Made by a program: the position numbers and the translations under genes. Below the pieces are notes generated by a model. It did no database searches. It had not been told where the DNA came from and saw only the letters and a list, made by a program, of their open reading frames with translations. This document shows, one piece after another, positions 28,101 to 35,144 of a DNA stretch of 64,000 nt (position 1 is the first letter of the stretch; the number at the start of each line of letters is the position of its first letter). The DNA comes from an uncultured Planctomycetaceae bacterium. Its GTDB lineage: Bacteria > Planctomycetota > Planctomycetia > Planctomycetales > Planctomycetaceae. The DNA lies in NCBI GenBank assembly GCA_963815195.1, contig CAWFGE010000018.1, positions 1 to 64,000 on the forward strand, in the 5' to 3' direction.

Positions 28101-29474
28101 TGTGGTGGACCCCGAAAACTGGACAGCCCAATAAGGTAGAATTTGCGATGTTCATTTGTCGCATTGGGAGGTTCCGATTATGACCAGGAAGCGTCGAGTT
28201 TTGGGGTCCGCGTTCAAAGCCAAGGTGGCGTTGGCGGCGGTCAAAGGGGATAGGACGACGGCTCAGTTGGCGTCGGAATTTGGCGTCCACACGAGCCAAG
28301 TCACGGCTTGGAAAAAGCAGTTGTTGTCGGGAGCCACTGAGTTGTTCACGGATGGCCGACGTAAGCGATCCGACGATCAATCGGCCAATGAGCAAGAACT
28401 CTATGAACAAATCGGCCGGCTGAAAATGGAAGTCGAGTGGCTCAAAAAAAAGTCGCTGACGCTGGATTAAGCCACGAGGTTTTGCGGGCATGGATCGAAC
28501 CGAAGCATTCCACGTTGAGCGTGTCGCGTCAGTGCGATCTGTTGGGATTGGCGCGGAGCAGTTGGTACTACGAACCTGGCGGCGAGACCGCGGAAAATTT
28601 GGAACTGATGCGGCGAATCGACGAGGAATACACGCGGCATCCGTTTTATGGTTCTCGCAAGATGGCCGAGTTGTTCGGCGTGAATCGCAAGCGAGTGCAG
28701 CGGCTGATGCGACAGATGGGAATCGAAGCGGTTGGACCGAAACGCCGCACGACCAAACCGGGGCGCGGACACAAGATTTACCCTTATTTACTGCGGAATG
28801 TGGAGGTTCTCCGGCCCAACCAGGTGTGGTCGAGCGACATCACTTACATCCCGCTTCGCCACGGGTTTTTGTATCTCGTGGCAGTGATGGACTGGTTCAG
28901 TCGCTACGTGTTGAGTTGGCGATTGTCGAACACGTTGGAGGGGAGTTTTTGCTTGGAGGCGTTGGACGAAGCCTTGTCGATCTCGCGGCCGGAGGTCTTC
29001 AACAGCGACCAGGGCAGCCAATTCACGGCGATCAAGTTCACCGAGCGATTGGAACGATTGAATGTCGCGATCAGTATGGATGGAAAAGGACGGTGCTTGG
29101 ACAACGTATTCATCGAGCGGCTGTGGCGGAGCGTGAAATACGAAGAGGTTTACTTGAAGGATTACACGGATGGTTGGGAGGCCGAGAGAAGCCTGCAGAG
29201 TTACTTTGAGTTCTATTGTGAGGAACGGATTCATCAGTCGCTGGGTTATCAAACGCCGGCGATGATCTACGAAGGAAAAGATTGAAGCCTGCACAAAGTG
29301 ATGGACGAAAAATGAAAACAAGTTTCGCGCAAAACCGGGAGGGAACTGGTGAGGTCTCGTCCCGGGCCCCTTGTCATCGGCGGCAGACGACGAGGCCTAT
29401 GAGGGGCCTCGTCTGCCGCTGACTCACACCACTAAACAACCCCGTTTGCTGTCCAAAGAATGGGGTCCACCTCA
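28101..29474 (+). mobile_element. IS3-family insertion sequence
   Basis: Terminal IRs TGTGGTGGACCCC...TGGACAGC and reverse-complement TGAGGTGGACCCC...TGGACAGC; orfA/orfB overlap at an A-run; no flanking direct repeat seen. Confidence 0.93.
28180..29285 (+). CDS. IS3 transposase OrfAB (programmed -1 frameshift at the A-run, 28444-28451)
   Basis: OrfA HTH (FKAKVAL...WKK...WLKKK); OrfB DDE (WSSDITY, NSDQGSQF, DNVFIERLWRSVKYE). Confidence 0.93.
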
Positions 29475-29963
29475 ATGACCCCGGCGAACTTTCTGTTCAT
29501 AGGCGGCTCGGGCACGTTGCCGCAATAGTCCCAGTTCAAATTCCGCCAAACTGCCCTTGAGCCCCAACAGCAATCGATCATTGAGTTGGCGCGGATCGTA
29601 GACGCCGTCTTCATCGATGATTAACGTCTCCGTGATCGCACAGAGATCAATCAAGTGATGCCAGTCCCGGTTGTTTCGCGCCAAACGCGAAGCCTCCAAA
29701 GCCAGAACGGCCCCCGCTTCGCCTTCGCAGACCGCCGTGAGCAATCTTGCGAATCCCGGGCGGTCTTGAAGTCCGCTGCCCGAGCGGCCGAGATCATCAT
29801 CAATCACCGTAACCTTGCGGAACTTGAGCTGCCTGGCGTAATCCGCCAGAGCATATTGCCGTTTTTGACCTTCGCGGTGCTCCCGCACTTGGTGATCACT
29901 GGATTGCCGGACATAGACAAAAGCGGTTCGCTCTCGGTGTTCAGATCGAATCTTCTCGTTCAT
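29472..29963 (-). pseudogene. Large serine recombinase #2, catalytic domain only, truncated by IS3
   Basis: VYVRQSS, EASRLARN, NDRLLLGLKG; the ORF ends at the IS3 right end. Confidence 0.88.
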
Positions 29964-30129
29964 CGACGTTCTCCTGTTGAGATTGAGAGGGGAAGGATTG
30001 TTTCAACTGCTGTGTGATTAAACGTTGGCACTCATCGCGGACGGCTTGCGGGAGCTTGTCCCACAGATCAAGCCGCGCGAACGCAAACACCTGTTGTTTA
30101 GGAGGAGGGTGGACTTCGTTTCGCGGCAT
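29941..30129 (-). CDS. Small LSR-associated accessory protein
   Basis: GGAG RBS; LWDKLPQAVRDECQRLI; overlaps the LSR start; parallels the ORF starting at 32824. Confidence 0.55.
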   Translation of the reverse strand: MPRNEVHPPPKQQVFAFARLDLWDKLPQAVRDECQRLITQQLKQSFPSQSQQENVDEREDSI

Positions 30130-30450
30130 GAGGATCTCCTTGAGGAATTGAGTTTCCCTCAGTCGTAGAGTCTGCCTCCGCGTGAAACAATGGTTGGTGG
30201 TCCAGAAGTCGACGAAGCTCAAGCAGAGCCGCGATCCCGATTCGCGGATGGTCCGCATCAGGACAATGACCGCAGGCGATGGGATCAAGCATCCAACACG
30301 GAATCGCGAGTTGCACATCGTCTCGCAGTCGTACGAGATGATGAGCCGCATCAAATCGGCGAACGACCTCGACCTCTTCGCCATAGAAAGCGTGATAACG
30401 ATAGCAGATCATTACTCGGGGCGATTCATGAGCAGTGTGTTGATGGATAG
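30098..30450 (-). CDS. LSR-associated accessory ORF (DUF5372/Y4bD-like), frame open to the element boundary
   Basis: HQHTAH...YRYHAFYGEEVEVV...IPCWMLD. Confidence 0.55.
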
Positions 30451-30642
30451 GGGCAATTGTTTCATGCCCATGTCGTCGATGATCAACAGGTCGGGCTTGA
30501 GGTATCGCATCAACGTTTTGTCATCGCCATCGAACGCGGCCTCGTGCAGGAAGTCGCGGACCACGTCGAAGATCGAACGGTAGAGCACCGAAAAGCCCGC
30601 CTTGATCGCGCTGCGGCCCACGGCCTGGCAGCAATGGCTCTT
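30451..30642 (-). pseudogene. istB: istB middle fragment (end of Walker A to Walker B)
   Basis: KSHCCQAVGRSAIKAGFSVLY...LLIIDDMGMKQLP continues the istB N-terminal fragment at 33118-33450. Confidence 0.9.
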
Positions 30643-30645
30643 GAC

Positions 30646-32721
30646 TCAGCCATTGTTGTGCCCCCTTGGGATAGTGATTTGCTCGGTTTCGTGATTTTTG
30701 AGTTTTAGCATGGCGTCTTTAACCTCCTCAGTTTTGGGAAACAGATAGCACCGATAAATTGGATCGACAGAAACCACGATCTGTCTTTGCTCAATTTTAT
30801 GATACATCCAGGATATGTTGCGCCCGATTTCCTGAGCCATTTCCGCGGCGGTCCAGGCATGGGGCAGGTTCTTTGCACGCGGGCTTTTGATCCGGTAGCG
30901 ATGTCTTAACTTGTTCACGATTTGCGAGGTGAATTGTTCGCCACGACAGGGATGATGGCCTTCGCGATTGAGATCCGCCGCGATCATTTCACTCGACCGG
31001 CCTTCGCTGGTTTCTTGCCGGATGCGTTCCACGATGTGCTCTTCCAAGTCCGTGTGTTTCATTGAAAAACGCCGTAGGAGAGCCGACGTTTCGGTCACCG
31101 AACCGCCGGCCCAGACCATGCGAATTTGCACCAGCCCATCCGATTGCCGGTGAAGATTGACTCCCGTAATCATCGTCCGCAACAACGACTTCTTCGCCTC
31201 CCAAGACAACTCGGGCCAGAGTTCGGGAAGCTGCCGCCCGACATCCGCGAAGGCGTCTCGCAAGGACTTTGGTACGCGGATCGGTTGGGGAATTTCTCGG
31301 CGGGCATCCGCCAGGTTTTCTTCGGCTTGCTTTTGTGCCAACAAAGCCGATTCCCATTTCTCTTCCAGACTGGCCGCAATCAAACGGTTCTTGGGATCGA
31401 CACAGTCGTATTGTTGCTCGGCCCGATGGGCGGCGTATTGCAAGCGCCCGACGTCTTGCTCCAAATGCCGAACCACGTCCGCATGCGTGCGAGCCCTTTC
31501 GGCGGAGAGTTTCTCCAACACATCGATCTCGGCAGGCCGCAGCACTTCAAAGAAAGCTTCCGTCACCGCCTCGTCGATCTTGTTGCCGCCCAAGTACTGG
31601 CAGGATCGTTGGGCGTAATGCCGATAGCCAGAATTGCATGAGTATTGAAAGCGGTTCTCCTTGTAATTCACTCCCATCGTTCGACCGCATTTTCCGCAGC
31701 GCAATAAGCCCGTTAACAACGCGCAGCCGTTGCGGATGGCTTGCTTGGCGGCGAGTCGTTGTTGGATGCGGAGGTTGTTTTGAGCGATTCGGCGTTGGTT
31801 GTCTTCGTACTGCTCCCAACTGATATAGGCCGGGTAGATGCCGGGAATTAAGACCGACCATTCCGCTTGGGGCCGGCGCGTGCGACCCGTGGCAGGACGA
31901 CCGGGAATTCGTAGCGTGGGATCGACTTGCCGACGCCCATGAGCAAACGCGCCTGCATAAGCCGGGTTATGCAGGATCGAGCCCAACGAAGCGGCCGTGG
32001 CTTCTCTCCAAAACACTTCGCCCGCATAAAGGCCCGAAACTTGGCGCCGGGGAATCTTCAAATTTTTCTTGGCCAGGAACGTCAAGACTTTTTGAATCGT
32101 GCCCAACTCCACGAACTTGTCGAACACCAAATGCAATCGCTTTTGAATGCTCAGATCGGGATCGAGCATCACCGTCTTGTCCAGATTGCGGACCAAGCCC
32201 GTCGGCAAGTTTTGCACCAACTCGCCCCGCGCGGCCTTCGACAATCGACCCGCGTCCAATCGCAATCGGAGGCTATGGAGCTCTGCCGAAGACATCGTGC
32301 CCTTCAAGCCTAAGAGGAGCCTGTCGTTGAAATCCCGTGGATGATACAACCCATCCACATCACCGATGAGTGTGTCAAAGATCGCACACAATTCCAACAG
32401 TCGATGCCAATCCACATCGTTGCGGGAAAGCCGTGAAACTTCATAGCCCAGAATGATGCCAACCTTACCCAAGCCGACGTCGGCGACCATCTGTTGAAAG
32501 GCCCCGCGTCCCGCCGTTTGCGTGGCCGATTGCCCTTGATCATCCTCCAGGATGCTGACTTGTTCCGGCTTCCACCCCAACTCCAACAACCGGGTTTTCA
32601 AGGCTCGCTGGTTGTGGGCACTCTCTTGGTTTTTCTCGACCTGCTTCGTCGTGCTCTGACGAAGATATACGATCCCGCGGCGATTCAAATGGCTGGTGCT
32701 GACTTTCATCGATCCGTTCAT
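30646..32721 (-). CDS. Large serine recombinase (catalytic, recombinase and Zn-ribbon domains), 691 aa
   Basis: VYLRQST, EVSRLSRN, ILHNPAYAG, LTGLLRCGKCG...YSC...C, coiled coil. Confidence 0.95.
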   Translation of the reverse strand: MNGSMKVSTSHLNRRGIVYLRQSTTKQVEKNQESAHNQRALKTRLLELGWKPEQVSILEDDQGQSATQTAGRGAFQQMVADVGLGKVGIILGYEVSRLSRNDVDWHRLLELCAIFDTLIGDVDGLYHPRDFNDRLLLGLKGTMSSAELHSLRLRLDAGRLSKAARGELVQNLPTGLVRNLDKTVMLDPDLSIQKRLHLVFDKFVELGTIQKVLTFLAKKNLKIPRRQVSGLYAGEVFWREATAASLGSILHNPAYAGAFAHGRRQVDPTLRIPGRPATGRTRRPQAEWSVLIPGIYPAYISWEQYEDNQRRIAQNNLRIQQRLAAKQAIRNGCALLTGLLRCGKCGRTMGVNYKENRFQYSCNSGYRHYAQRSCQYLGGNKIDEAVTEAFFEVLRPAEIDVLEKLSAERARTHADVVRHLEQDVGRLQYAAHRAEQQYDCVDPKNRLIAASLEEKWESALLAQKQAEENLADARREIPQPIRVPKSLRDAFADVGRQLPELWPELSWEAKKSLLRTMITGVNLHRQSDGLVQIRMVWAGGSVTETSALLRRFSMKHTDLEEHIVERIRQETSEGRSSEMIAADLNREGHHPCRGEQFTSQIVNKLRHRYRIKSPRAKNLPHAWTAAEMAQEIGRNISWMYHKIEQRQIVVSVDPIYRCYLFPKTEEVKDAMLKLKNHETEQITIPRGHNNG

Positions 32722-32824
32722 GCTCCAGTTCCTCCGTTAGAATGACGACGATTTGCTGGATGATCCGCTGCTGCTCTGGAAGAGTCAGACGGTTCCACAC
32801 CTGGTCCGTGGCAATGGGTGACAT
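32540..32824 (-). CDS. Small LSR-associated accessory protein
   Basis: GGAGG RBS; VWNRLTLPEQQRIIQQI; the 3' end overlaps the LSR, so its extent is uncertain. Confidence 0.5.
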   Translation of the reverse strand: MSPIATDQVWNRLTLPEQQRIIQQIVVILTEELEHERIDESQHQPFESPRDRISSSEHDEAGREKPRECPQPASLENPVVGVGVEAGTSQHPGG

Positions 32825-33119
32825 CGGCTTCCCTCCGAGAAAGAATATCCCGAAAGGTAGTCACCAAATCCTGGAGCGCGTCCAGGGTCAGACAGGAAGT
32901 TTTTTGGGGAGGAGCGGTGGAAAGGTTCGTGCTGCTGACGTCGATGTAGGTCATCTCGTCAGGAAAAATCTCGACTTGATAATACTGACGATAACCTGGC
33001 AGGCGGGCTAAGCCGAACAAATCAAATGTTCGGCCATAAAGCGGATGGGCCGGATCGGTGACGGTGATCTCACCGCGCGATAACTGAGTGACCAGAGGGG
33101 TCTTGTGATGGTCGGACCT
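32718..33119 (-). CDS. DUF5372/Y4bD-like accessory ORF lacking its start in the integrated state
   Basis: EITVTDPAHPLYGRTF motif; frame open to the att core with no ATG before the motif. Confidence 0.6.
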   Translation of the reverse strand, partial: RSDHHKTPLVTQLSRGEITVTDPAHPLYGRTFDLFGLARLPGYRQYYQVEIFPDEMTYIDVSSTNLSTAPPQKTSCLTLDALQDLVTTFRDILSRREADVTHCHGPGVEPSDSSRAAADHPANRRHSNGGTGA

Positions 33120-33450
33120 TCCCAGTTCCGGGCGGACCGAGCAGCAAAATGTCGGCGGCTTCGCGAATAAACTTCCCCGTCGCCAGGTCCATGATTCGGC
33201 GTTTGGGGAGAGTGGGGTTGAAGGAAAAATCGAGTTGGTCGAGGGTCTTCATCTCGCGGAACTGGGCCAGCTTCAATCGCCGATCGATCGCCCGTTGGCG
33301 ACGGATTGCCAACTCATCGCTTAACACCAGTTCCAAGAACTCGGCATGCGACAAGCCGTTGCCGATGGCTTCTTGCAGCCTGACTTCCAAGGATTCGATC
33401 AGGCCGCTCAAGCGGAGTTGCTTCAGCATCTGCATTAAATTTCCATTCAT
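33118..33450 (-). pseudogene. istB: istB N-terminal fragment
   Basis: LKQLRLSG...KTLDQLDFSFNP...LLLGPPGTGK; overlaps the istA stop. Confidence 0.92.
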
Positions 33451-35030
33451 CGGTTTTGCTCCTTTCGAAGAGCGGCTTTGACAAACTCGGAATAACTCAC
33501 CAGCGGCCGAATGACCGGGTGTTCGTCTAAAAACTCAAACTGGGCTTGCACGGGGGCGTTGCGGTCGATCAGCTTGCGAACGGTCCTCAGTCGGTAGGCT
33601 CCATACGAGTGGGCGGTGCGGCACGCGCGTTCGATGTCCTCGCGCGAATGCTTGTCGGCCAGTTGCTTGAGGCCCATCAACACCCGCACGCCCTCAATGC
33701 CGCGTGCTCCCAGCATGGCCGCGGACCAATCCCTGGTTTCCGGGCCGATTTCGCTGACTTTCGCCAGCCACCAGGTGGCTCCGCGTTCCACGCCGGAGAT
33801 TTTCCTCGCGTGCAAATGGGTGTTCTGCGTGCTGAACTTTCCCGGTTCTTGACGGGCATGCAAGGCGATCTGTTCCAGCTTGGCATTGAAGATGCGCACC
33901 AGCCGCGCATCCCAGCGCACCCAGACTTTCCTTCCCAGAAATTCCGGCGGCACGGAGTAATACGCCTTGTCCACGGAAATGTGCCCATCGCGATGCACGC
34001 TCCGCAGGGCTTCATGGAAAAACGGAAATCGTTCCAACGGCAACGGCAACGGAAACAGTGCTGACCGTTCCCGTTCGCGAAACGCCTTGCCCACTTGCTC
34101 TCTGGTCGTTCCATGAATCCGCGTATCGGCCACGGTGGATTCCCAGGCCCACAAGTGTTCGTTCTGTTCGCGCAGGCTTCGGAACGTCCGCCCTTTGAGT
34201 GCGTTTTCTTGGGCGTAGTCCACGCCGCGTTCGACCTTGCCTTTGTGTCGGGGCGTGCGAACCCGCGTGGGCAAAAACACCGTGCCGTAGTGCGCGGCGA
34301 ACGATTGAATCTTGGGGTTCAGTTCCGGGTCGAACCAATCCGCCTTGCTCACGGCGGCGCGCAAGTTATCGATGATCAGAGTCTTGGGCACACCTCCAAA
34401 ATGCCAGAACGCACTCTCCAGACACCGAATGAAGTTGTCGGTGGTCTGGCGATCGATCGCTTCCGTGTAGCCTTTACGGCTGTGGCTCAGCACGACCCGC
34501 AACACGTGTGGCCGGCGACGACGGCCGTTCTCATCCACGACGGCCGCGGCTTGGCCAAAGTCCACTTGAGCTTCCGCGCCGGGTGCGCATTCCAATCGAC
34601 GAAACGGCAACTCCTTCGAAGACCGCAACTGCCGCACGAAGCGTTTCACGCTGTCGTCACCATGGGGAAAATCATGGTCATTCGACAGGTCCTGGAAAAT
34701 TCGCTGCGCGGAAAGTCCCTGGCCGAGCTTTTCTAAAATGACATCCCGCCAAGGCTCGCAGCGGCTCCGCGAAAGTTCCGACTCGTCCTTCTCAGAATCG
34801 TCTTCAAGGGCCTCACGAAGGTCCTCCGACCCGGCGGGCAGTTGGCCCTCGGACCCGGTGGGCACTTTGGCCTCGGACCCGGTGGGCACTTTGGCCGGTT
34901 TTGAAGCGAGATGGGCGGCCACCGTTGAACGGTGAATGCCCAATTCGCGGGCAATCTTGCGCAAAGACCAGCCTTGAGCGCGCAAAGTGTGAATGGCTTG
35001 AACCGTGTCCATCGAGAGCTGATTCGACAT
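33447..35030 (-). CDS. istA: IS21 transposase IstA
   Basis: HTH, PGAEAQVDFG, FGGVPKTLIIDN, KGKVERGV, YSVP. Confidence 0.95.
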   Translation of the reverse strand: MSNQLSMDTVQAIHTLRAQGWSLRKIARELGIHRSTVAAHLASKPAKVPTGSEAKVPTGSEGQLPAGSEDLREALEDDSEKDESELSRSRCEPWRDVILEKLGQGLSAQRIFQDLSNDHDFPHGDDSVKRFVRQLRSSKELPFRRLECAPGAEAQVDFGQAAAVVDENGRRRRPHVLRVVLSHSRKGYTEAIDRQTTDNFIRCLESAFWHFGGVPKTLIIDNLRAAVSKADWFDPELNPKIQSFAAHYGTVFLPTRVRTPRHKGKVERGVDYAQENALKGRTFRSLREQNEHLWAWESTVADTRIHGTTREQVGKAFRERERSALFPLPLPLERFPFFHEALRSVHRDGHISVDKAYYSVPPEFLGRKVWVRWDARLVRIFNAKLEQIALHARQEPGKFSTQNTHLHARKISGVERGATWWLAKVSEIGPETRDWSAAMLGARGIEGVRVLMGLKQLADKHSREDIERACRTAHSYGAYRLRTVRKLIDRNAPVQAQFEFLDEHPVIRPLVSYSEFVKAALRKEQNR

Positions 35031-35144
35031 CGCTTGTTTTCCTCTGAGAAAACTCAAAGGAGAACAAAATGTCGAATCCCTTTCCTCTCAAAATGGCCGG
35101 TTTTGAACTGCCCACAAGTGGCCGGTTTTCACTGCCCGGTGACA

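Follow-up and report, generated by a model that had tools for sequence, protein, structure and literature searches.

How a serine recombinase chooses the direction of its reaction is an open question that limits the use of these enzymes in genome editing, and the known answers employ a separately regulated recombination directionality factor (RDF). In mycobacteriophage BPs, attP is said to lie within the repressor gene, so that integration removes the 3' end of that gene and a shorter, active form is made from the prophage. The transposons Tn4451 and Tn4453, the subject of work by Lyras and Rood in 2000 on the large resolvase TnpX, are reportedly moved by a large serine recombinase (LSR) through a circular intermediate whose joined ends form a promoter for the recombinase gene. 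Published accounts describe the integration-dependent immunity of BPs (PMC4557955); the promoters Pcirc of ICEclc and P3'end of ICEKp1, two integrative and conjugative elements (ICEs), which lie at the far end of the element and drive the tyrosine integrase gene by attP only after circularisation (PMC13023037); the IS110/IS621 bridge-RNA elements, which excise without a scar to a circle whose joined RE-LE rebuilds a promoter for the guide RNA (PMC11208160); and the 'suicidal' integrases of the SSV type in archaeal viruses and plasmids, in which attP lies inside the element's own tyrosine recombinase gene, an arrangement that the cited review states to be confined to archaea (PMC8371274). For LSRs, verified RDFs are reported to bind the junction of the zinc ribbon and the coiled coil (PMC12286644). 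The DNA analyzed here, called the window, is a stretch of 64,000 nt from an uncultured Planctomycetaceae bacterium (assembly GCA_963815195.1, contig CAWFGE010000018.1, positions 1 to 64,000), and it holds a small LSR element, resembling an insertion sequence (IS), whose accessory gene orfA is split across attP. This orfA is probably whole only in a circular form of the element, where its product would act as a signal of the element's state.

In the integrated element the body of orfA is open for 133 codons (33119-32718) and has no ATG, GTG or TTG ahead of its conserved motif; counting from the upstream stop, the first such codon is TTG 33020, beyond the invariant VTDPxHPLxG. The far end of the element has a run resembling a Shine-Dalgarno (SD) sequence, AAGGGGG, followed by an ATG (30653..30651) placed 5 nt ahead of the LSR stop codon, as read from the sequence. 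When the two ends are joined in silico at the shared AA, this ATG comes into frame with orfA and gives 137 codons in total, and the joined site is symmetric about its core, with ATGG/CCAT at 8-11 and GGGG/CCCC at 19-22 on both arms. These points had been made in an earlier sequence-only reading of the window, and all of them stand. The same reading had taken AAG as the shared junction; AA is indeed common to both ends, but the G does not belong to the core, since copies in AAA-Lys targets share only AA. The AA core provides the first two bases of the Lys codon. OrfB and the LSR retain their own SD and ATG whether the element is integrated or circular. The features of the element and of the interrupted gene are as follows.

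30641..33120, minus strand: mobile element of ~2.48 kb, with one AA core copy at each end (33120..33119 and 30642..30641)
32718..33119, minus strand: body of orfA, 133 codons plus stop, without a canonical start when integrated
32543..32824, minus strand: orfB, with ATG 32824 after GGAGG, in another frame and overlapping the tail of orfA and the start of the LSR gene
30646..32721, minus strand: LSR gene, 691 aa, with PF00239, PF07508 and PF13408; its ATG overlaps the orfA stop (ATGA)
30643..30669, minus strand: left attP arm (far end), with the SD-like AAGGGGG at 30667..30661, the orfA ATG at 30653..30651 and the LSR stop TGA at 30648..30646
33092..33118, minus strand: right attP arm, equal to the first 9 orfA codons, core-N16-GACCC, read as ..K-T-P
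33121..33450, minus strand: N-terminal part of istB, up to GPPGTG-K, IS21 helper ATPase (PF01695 profile 2-106)
30451..30640, minus strand: middle part of istB, SHCCQAVG...DDMGMKQLP (PF01695 profile 112-170), cut again ~190 bp downstream by a second element

The element is inserted in the Walker A lysine codon (GxGK) of an IS21 istB gene. Its high-coordinate end, read on the minus strand, is ...GGG-AA(33120..33119)-GGTCCGACCATCAC, and its low-coordinate end reads AAGGGGG-7 nt-ATG-GC-TGA(LSR stop)-GTC-AA(30642..30641)-G. The element has no non-coding ends. Once rebuilt, the empty site gives a gap-free alignment with a paralogous istB that is intact (C23:241632-241751), reading GPPGTGKSHCCQAVG, and contigs from other metagenome runs part from the window sequence exactly at 30639/30641 and 33120. 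AA is common to attL, attR and the rebuilt attB, with no target duplication beyond this 2-bp core. A 2-bp core with imperfect inverted repeats fits the putative LSR chemistry. Fusion of orfA to the host gene is rejected for the window, where the istB frame entered from the upstream side is offset by one and stops after 16 codons inside the element, and the flanks of DDE_Tnp_1_6 host genes in relatives are likewise out of frame. At the other end, the LSR reading frame runs on into that of the downstream istB part, where its stop is followed by one codon and then by the Lys codon, and the far-end ATG read into the flank opens an out-of-frame ORF of only 47 codons (30510..30653).

The source genome (G000, 25 contigs) contains eight copies of the element with 99.6-100% identity, plus one 681-bp fragment. 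All eight copies interrupt the same GxGK(S/T) Lys codon, spread over three different istB genes, and their flanks diverge at the element's end bases, with AA alone shared by both junctions. Both orfA and orfB are intact in all eight copies and the LSR gene in three, those on C18, C12 and C15. The copies with a broken LSR gene (two on C7 and one each on C8, C16 and C23) have frames of 183-577 codons that result from 1-2-nt length differences, and could be either decaying copies mobilised in trans or products of assembly indels. In three copies (C12:1838-4317, C15:137081-139561 and C16:84395-86873) the left flank belongs to one istB type and the right flank to another. These mixed flanks imply that copies have recombined with each other, through the LSR or by homology, and have thereby rearranged the genome. 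Several contigs end within istB genes that hold mixed-flank copies.

Relatives of the element are used to examine whether the split layout is general. Single-sequence searches recover only one protein, one reference-genome locus and three weak matches in 400 other genomes of the phylum. Alignment-based searches add eight further genomes of the same family, and in the relatives that they recover orfA lies directly upstream of the LSR gene. Metagenome contigs provide 525 orfA relatives among 600 pattern matches, with 80 loci kept, and 802 database proteins are related to OrfA at E<=1e-5. The ends of these elements yield a common attP geometry, GGGCA-N5-ATG-N8-core-N16-TACCC, whose last motif is the conserved (N/D)-T-P of OrfA. 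The arms are mirror-symmetric at GGGCA/TGCCC and NTG/CAN, and 7-8 nt ahead of the ATG stands a G-rich outer att motif that resembles an SD sequence. The geometry is applied separately to attL and attR and the predicted core dinucleotides are then compared, the main left-arm search requiring TG and leaving the first base free. The two predictions agree in 36 of 45 complete elements; the nine mismatches reflect contig edges, misdetected motifs and one-base differences (L028 TT/TG, L085 CA/TA and L107 AA/CA). In the test that the sequence-only reading had named, in-silico circles of homologues restore an in-frame start: every one of the 36 core-matched junction ORFs is open and in frame (32 ATG, 1 GTG, 2 TTG and 1 CTG), the two TTG cases being one element seen twice. 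A stricter motif-only search without the TG requirement gives matching cores in 29 of 42 elements, and all 29 have NTG at the start position, 27 of them ATG.

The split layout, with a start in the left attP arm that is in frame across the core and none at the left end of the element, is present in the window and in the family. It persists among LSRs with as little as 37% identity and in six or more kinds of target gene. The cores found across the family are AA, TA, TG, TT and CG. By Pfam, the interrupted genes encode IstB, group II intron reverse transcriptase (RT), DDE_Tnp_1_6, rve and other LSRs, the rve assignment consisting of weak matches on fragments. The IstB Walker A codon is also the target in L013, L022, L023, L034 and L036. 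In two loci the break in RVT_1 falls at profile 78/79, immediately ahead of the F-D of motif A, and the other catalytic-motif sites are DDE_Tnp_1_6 profile 105, ERFxxTL(K/Q)xEC of rve and DG(I/V)YDP of LSR genes. For the rve-targeting relatives, the geometry-based core TG/TT restores ERFIQTL(K/Q)xEC; a shared CCAC considered as the joint of these elements is rejected, being off by 3 nt relative to the geometry-based core. The orfA-orfB-LSR family, with L013, L022-L026, L030-L109 and the element of the window, inserts throughout into conserved catalytic-motif codons of genes of other mobile elements and would consist of parasites of parasites, whose excision would restore the host gene exactly.

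Selection along orfA is measured as the ratio of nonsynonymous to synonymous differences (pN/pS) in 25 distinct IstB-targeting relatives. Codons 9-21, from the att motif to VTDP, have a pN/pS of 0.26 at a pS of 0.59, and codons 6-8 have a pN/pS of 0.16. Codons 1-5 after the core have a pN/pS of 1.1 at a pS of 0.23, which indicates constraint at the level of DNA, like that of att DNA, and not at the level of protein. In an AlphaFold2 (AF2) model of OrfA built from a 56-sequence alignment, residues 11-20 form the first strand of an SH3-like barrel, with a predicted local distance difference test (pLDDT) score of 84-92. Codons 9-21 are under purifying selection and form this first strand; translation would therefore have to begin no later than the core, and the N-terminal extension behind the junction is coding. 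An internal start at TTG 33020, which the sequence-only reading had named as the contrary outcome, is disfavoured because the codons upstream of it are under purifying selection, and such a start would leave the protein without its invariant DPxHPL and the opening beta strand of the modelled fold. In the left-arm triplet, A is the first base in 28 of 31 distinct left arms (90%), and the mirrored triplet of the right arm is ATG in only 8 of 31 (26%). LSR coding does not account for the ATG, since subfamilies with this triplet 13-16 nt behind the LSR stop still always have ATG.

The AF2 model of OrfA has a pLDDT of 74.8, with strands at 11-20, 31-40, 44-52 and 55-60, a helix at 79-102 and a basic tail, and eight columns are invariant in the 56-sequence alignment. 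The window OrfA has no match to DUF5372 (PF17342) at E<=1, 15 of the 56 relatives have weak matches to it (best E 8e-4), and the nearest Atlas clusters to OrfA carry PF17342 on 12-33% of their members (score 0.93); OrfA is tentatively classed as a distant DUF5372-like protein. A Foldseek search of the OrfA fold against the PDB returns nothing at E<=0.001, and a wide VIA-align comparison with OrfA returns only generic SH3-like, KOW and Tudor barrels with Z<=6.0. OrfB is a conserved helix protein, M..(V/I)W..L....I..IL.E, with 43 distinct homologues and no matching Pfam family. The catalytic domain of the LSR matches PF00239 (E 6e-17, residues 17-167), and R21, Q22 and S23 of its R-x-S motif are invariant in 35 sequences. 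The AF2 model of the LSR places zinc ribbon strands at 340-378, a coiled coil at 396-475 (helices 396-440 and 446-475) and the second half of the second DNA-binding domain (DBD2) at 485-548, with strands at 518-548. The protein has the large serine recombinase layout of a first DNA-binding domain (DBD1) followed by a zinc ribbon DBD2 with an inserted coiled coil.

A complex prediction combining the LSR and OrfB 1-60 with OrfA 1-105 as the partner gives a median score of 0.69, compared with 0.38 for the best of three controls and 0.00 and 0.00 for unrelated partners. Of 157 solved complexes 116 reach the score mark, as do 2 of 215 mismatched pairs, counts that are only a rough guide here, where own alignments and three chains are used. 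The runs agree in at least 27% of contacts, with a partner pLDDT of at least 61. The predicted interface joins OrfA 23-28 (the invariant DPxHPL), 51-57 and 73-92 with LSR 341-346, 393-408 and 481-543, and its surface on the LSR is made up of the zinc ribbon and the base of the coiled coil. In these predictions OrfA accordingly docks where the zinc ribbon of the LSR meets its coiled coil. Relative to the LSR ATG, 60 of 78 loci have the orfA stop at +1 (ATGA) or -6, a position that suggests translational coupling.

In the proposed mechanism, the LSR would move the element, which inserts at the AA core into the lysine codon of Walker A in IS21 istB genes. The attP site overlaps both ends of the operon, its left arm comprising the LSR stop, the SD-like run and the orfA ATG, and its right arm comprising the first nine orfA codons. 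Integration parts orfA from its start, excision with circularisation would rejoin start and body, and the full 137-aa OrfA could then be translated from the joined ends only. As its most likely role, OrfA would report this state to the recombinase: with the element free, it may bias the reaction to integration or counter an excision factor such as OrfB. Since the stop of orfA overlaps the start of the LSR gene, translation of orfA could also increase the amount of LSR made from the circle.

That OrfA sets the free element to integrate, as an inverse RDF or an OrfB antagonist, is a proposed role that falls just short of an even chance; it is favoured because an RDF-like factor available only after excision reverses the logic of phages. 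A classical RDF acting in trans on other copies is unlikely, and the same holds for mere coupling or a by-product of compaction. As a tentative generalization, perhaps somewhat more often wrong than right, the family may represent widespread LSR mini-elements, hyperparasites with a circle-assembled RDF-like state sensor (an inverse RDF, or an anti-RDF acting against OrfB) that integration silences.

Several observations weigh against orfA being expressed from the circle alone, beginning with the start codon. The TG of the start codon has a mirror image in the right arm (81-90%), which makes part of the triplet att-site sequence. Extended to the whole triplet, this would make the far-end ATG a recombinase binding-site sequence only, with OrfA made from integrated copies as well by means of a non-canonical start, a flank start or the ribosomes of the host gene. 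An in-frame upstream start is available in 24 of 77 integrated copies, in 23 of which it lies in the host flank and is a chance occurrence, and in the window the truncated istB frame stops at a TGA just 1 nt before an in-frame ATC. One locus of 84, L022 (G761:C5, 6432 region), has a start inside the element within the N-terminal stretch: the A of its core and the following TG form an ATG also when integrated, its in-silico circle has two in-frame ATGs four codons apart, and this lineage may have escaped gating. The far-end triplet of L023 is CTG. The LSR-targeting subfamily (L055, L059, L062, L064, L081 and L084) has a palindromic core TA within GGATCGTACGATCC and occurs in both orientations relative to its target; where the target Asp codon is GAT, the flank GAT GGC ATC TAC read at +1 provides an in-frame ATG (M-A-S-T...) to the integrated copy, and database gene calls such as P0059 start at this flank-derived codon. 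Gating is not absolute in every lineage. As for the in-frame relation, it results from the fixed att geometry and counts as a single inherited trait and not as 36 separate events. A pure att-site motif is nonetheless disfavoured because only the left arm conserves the A of its ATG, and the flank starts vary in position and codon and are absent from the 53 of 77 integrated copies that have no start between the upstream stop and the conserved T-P codon. Ribosomes arriving from the host gene fit poorly with a host-frame stop that is not at a conserved place in L022 or L013 and with RT- and rve-targeting subfamilies whose host gene is on the opposite strand, and no conserved internal start precedes the invariant motif. 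Taken with both sides of this evidence, the att-site explanation is improbable.

A by-product of compaction is an alternative of similarly low probability, in which attP overlaps the LSR 3' end and the orfA 5' end, OrfA is needed only after excision, and the loss of the start has no regulatory meaning. The lack of any non-coding ends, the first five codons that evolve like att DNA and the related orfA2 in the same window, which has its start (ATG 30412) inside its element, all agree with it. Compaction would however have the same physical outcome, no start when integrated, and a layout whose SD-like run is held 7-8 nt upstream of the ATG across such divergent LSRs and target classes is hard to separate from selection for state-dependent expression. 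That orfA is decaying or non-functional, with a junction ORF that arises by chance, is scarcely credible: the missing Pfam match of the window OrfA and the broken LSR gene in five of eight copies of the genome would suit it, set against the low pN/pS over the N-terminus and motif (0.16-0.26), the invariant columns and confident predicted fold, an orfA intact in every copy and hundreds of relatives. As to the predicted contact, the complex score expresses the model's confidence, and the control that reached 0.38 is OrfA with OrfB in the absence of the LSR, so that part of the signal is independent of the LSR. An RDF-like factor made only after excision is also the reverse of phage logic.

The joint itself and a promoter for it were searched for, with results that likewise lend the circle no support. 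Window positions 30400-33400 are not listed as present in any RNA run. The 30-mers of the in-silico joint are absent from the assembly, the left-arm motif stands directly upstream of the attL core in 0 of 83 loci, and a degenerate joint-plus-orfA motif has 0 matches in viral contigs. A sigma-70 consensus scan of the gene strand over 30300-33600 finds no promoter, and the same scan of the in-silico joint yields a single weak match (8/12), 140 nt ahead of the ATG, and none spanning the joint, although host promoters may differ from the consensus. Contigs of four metagenome runs (X1, X2, X3 and X6) on 30300-33500 contain neither a circle joint nor an empty site, a result that is uninformative either way as contigs drop rare forms. 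Among the 120 best database homologues, the N-termini derive from flank or internal starts with the exception of P0025, whose protein sequence resembles the circle type at its N-terminus. An LSR element with an orfA that is completed in the circle is still the probable explanation of the locus.

The element is flanked by other mobile DNA, listed below.

33447..35057, minus strand: istA transposase of the host IS21-family element (rve, Mu-transpos_C_2 and HTH)
29470..30450, minus strand: second, different LSR element in the same istB, ~190 bp downstream, after ...DDMGMKQLP; orfA2 with ATG 30412, orfB2 with ATG 30129 behind AAGGAG, and LSR2 from 29963, cut at ~29470
28156..29285, plus strand: two overlapping ORFs (104 aa and 282 aa) that adjoin the LSR2 truncation point

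The product of orfA2 is an OrfA homologue without the N-terminal extension, and its own ATG lies 38 nt inside the element; other copies of the second element (C14, C19 and C21) have a premature TAG at codon 233. Judged by eye, the two overlapping ORFs look like an IS3-family transposase pair. If this assignment holds, at least four mobile elements would be nested here within 7 kb.

The layout ties the availability of a cofactor to the topology of the element and is kept across deep divergence and many target specificities. If OrfA alters LSR directionality, the element would be a compact self-resetting switch, with three genes in 2.5 kb and att sites that can be read from genomes, and if the inverse-RDF or anti-RDF reading is true, it would represent a new logic of directionality control in serine recombination. 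The family also offers natural LSRs whose targets are short, conserved coding motifs, and precise insertion in catalytic codons with exact restoration on excision would amount to reversible silencing of one parasite by another.

Literature searches on DUF5372 and on this family or layout, with bioRxiv supplements and subscription journals outside their reach, found no description of either. Among the systems introduced above, Tn4451/Tn4453 are likewise moved by an LSR, and the joining of their ends switches on a gene of the element, as is proposed here; the joint of the present element completes the reading frame of an accessory gene and does not form a recombinase promoter, none being found at the joint. 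The IS110/IS621 elements share the proposed production of a recombination cofactor from the circular form, and differ in using a DEDD/serine recombinase, a promoter and a guide RNA in place of an LSR, a start codon and a protein cofactor. The SSV-type integrases also have attP within a gene of the element that is whole only in the circle and split by integration, whereas the present element is bacterial and its recombinase gene stays whole, only four codons and the SD being parted from the accessory gene. In BPs, too, attP lies within a gene and integration alters the protein made, but there the 3' end is lost; here the 5' end is lost and no product is expected from the integrated form. ICEclc and ICEKp1 have a comparable far-end signal that serves the gene next to attP after circularisation, in the form of promoters in large ICEs and not of a split reading frame. 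Like the RDFs of large serine integrases (PMC12286644), OrfA is a small family-specific protein encoded beside the LSR gene and predicted to sit at the DBD2/coiled-coil junction; unlike those RDFs, which are made from the integrated prophage and trigger excision, OrfA is apparently available only after excision. Circle-dependent expression is already known from these systems, and what is new here is a bacterial LSR element with the SD and start of its accessory gene placed across attP.

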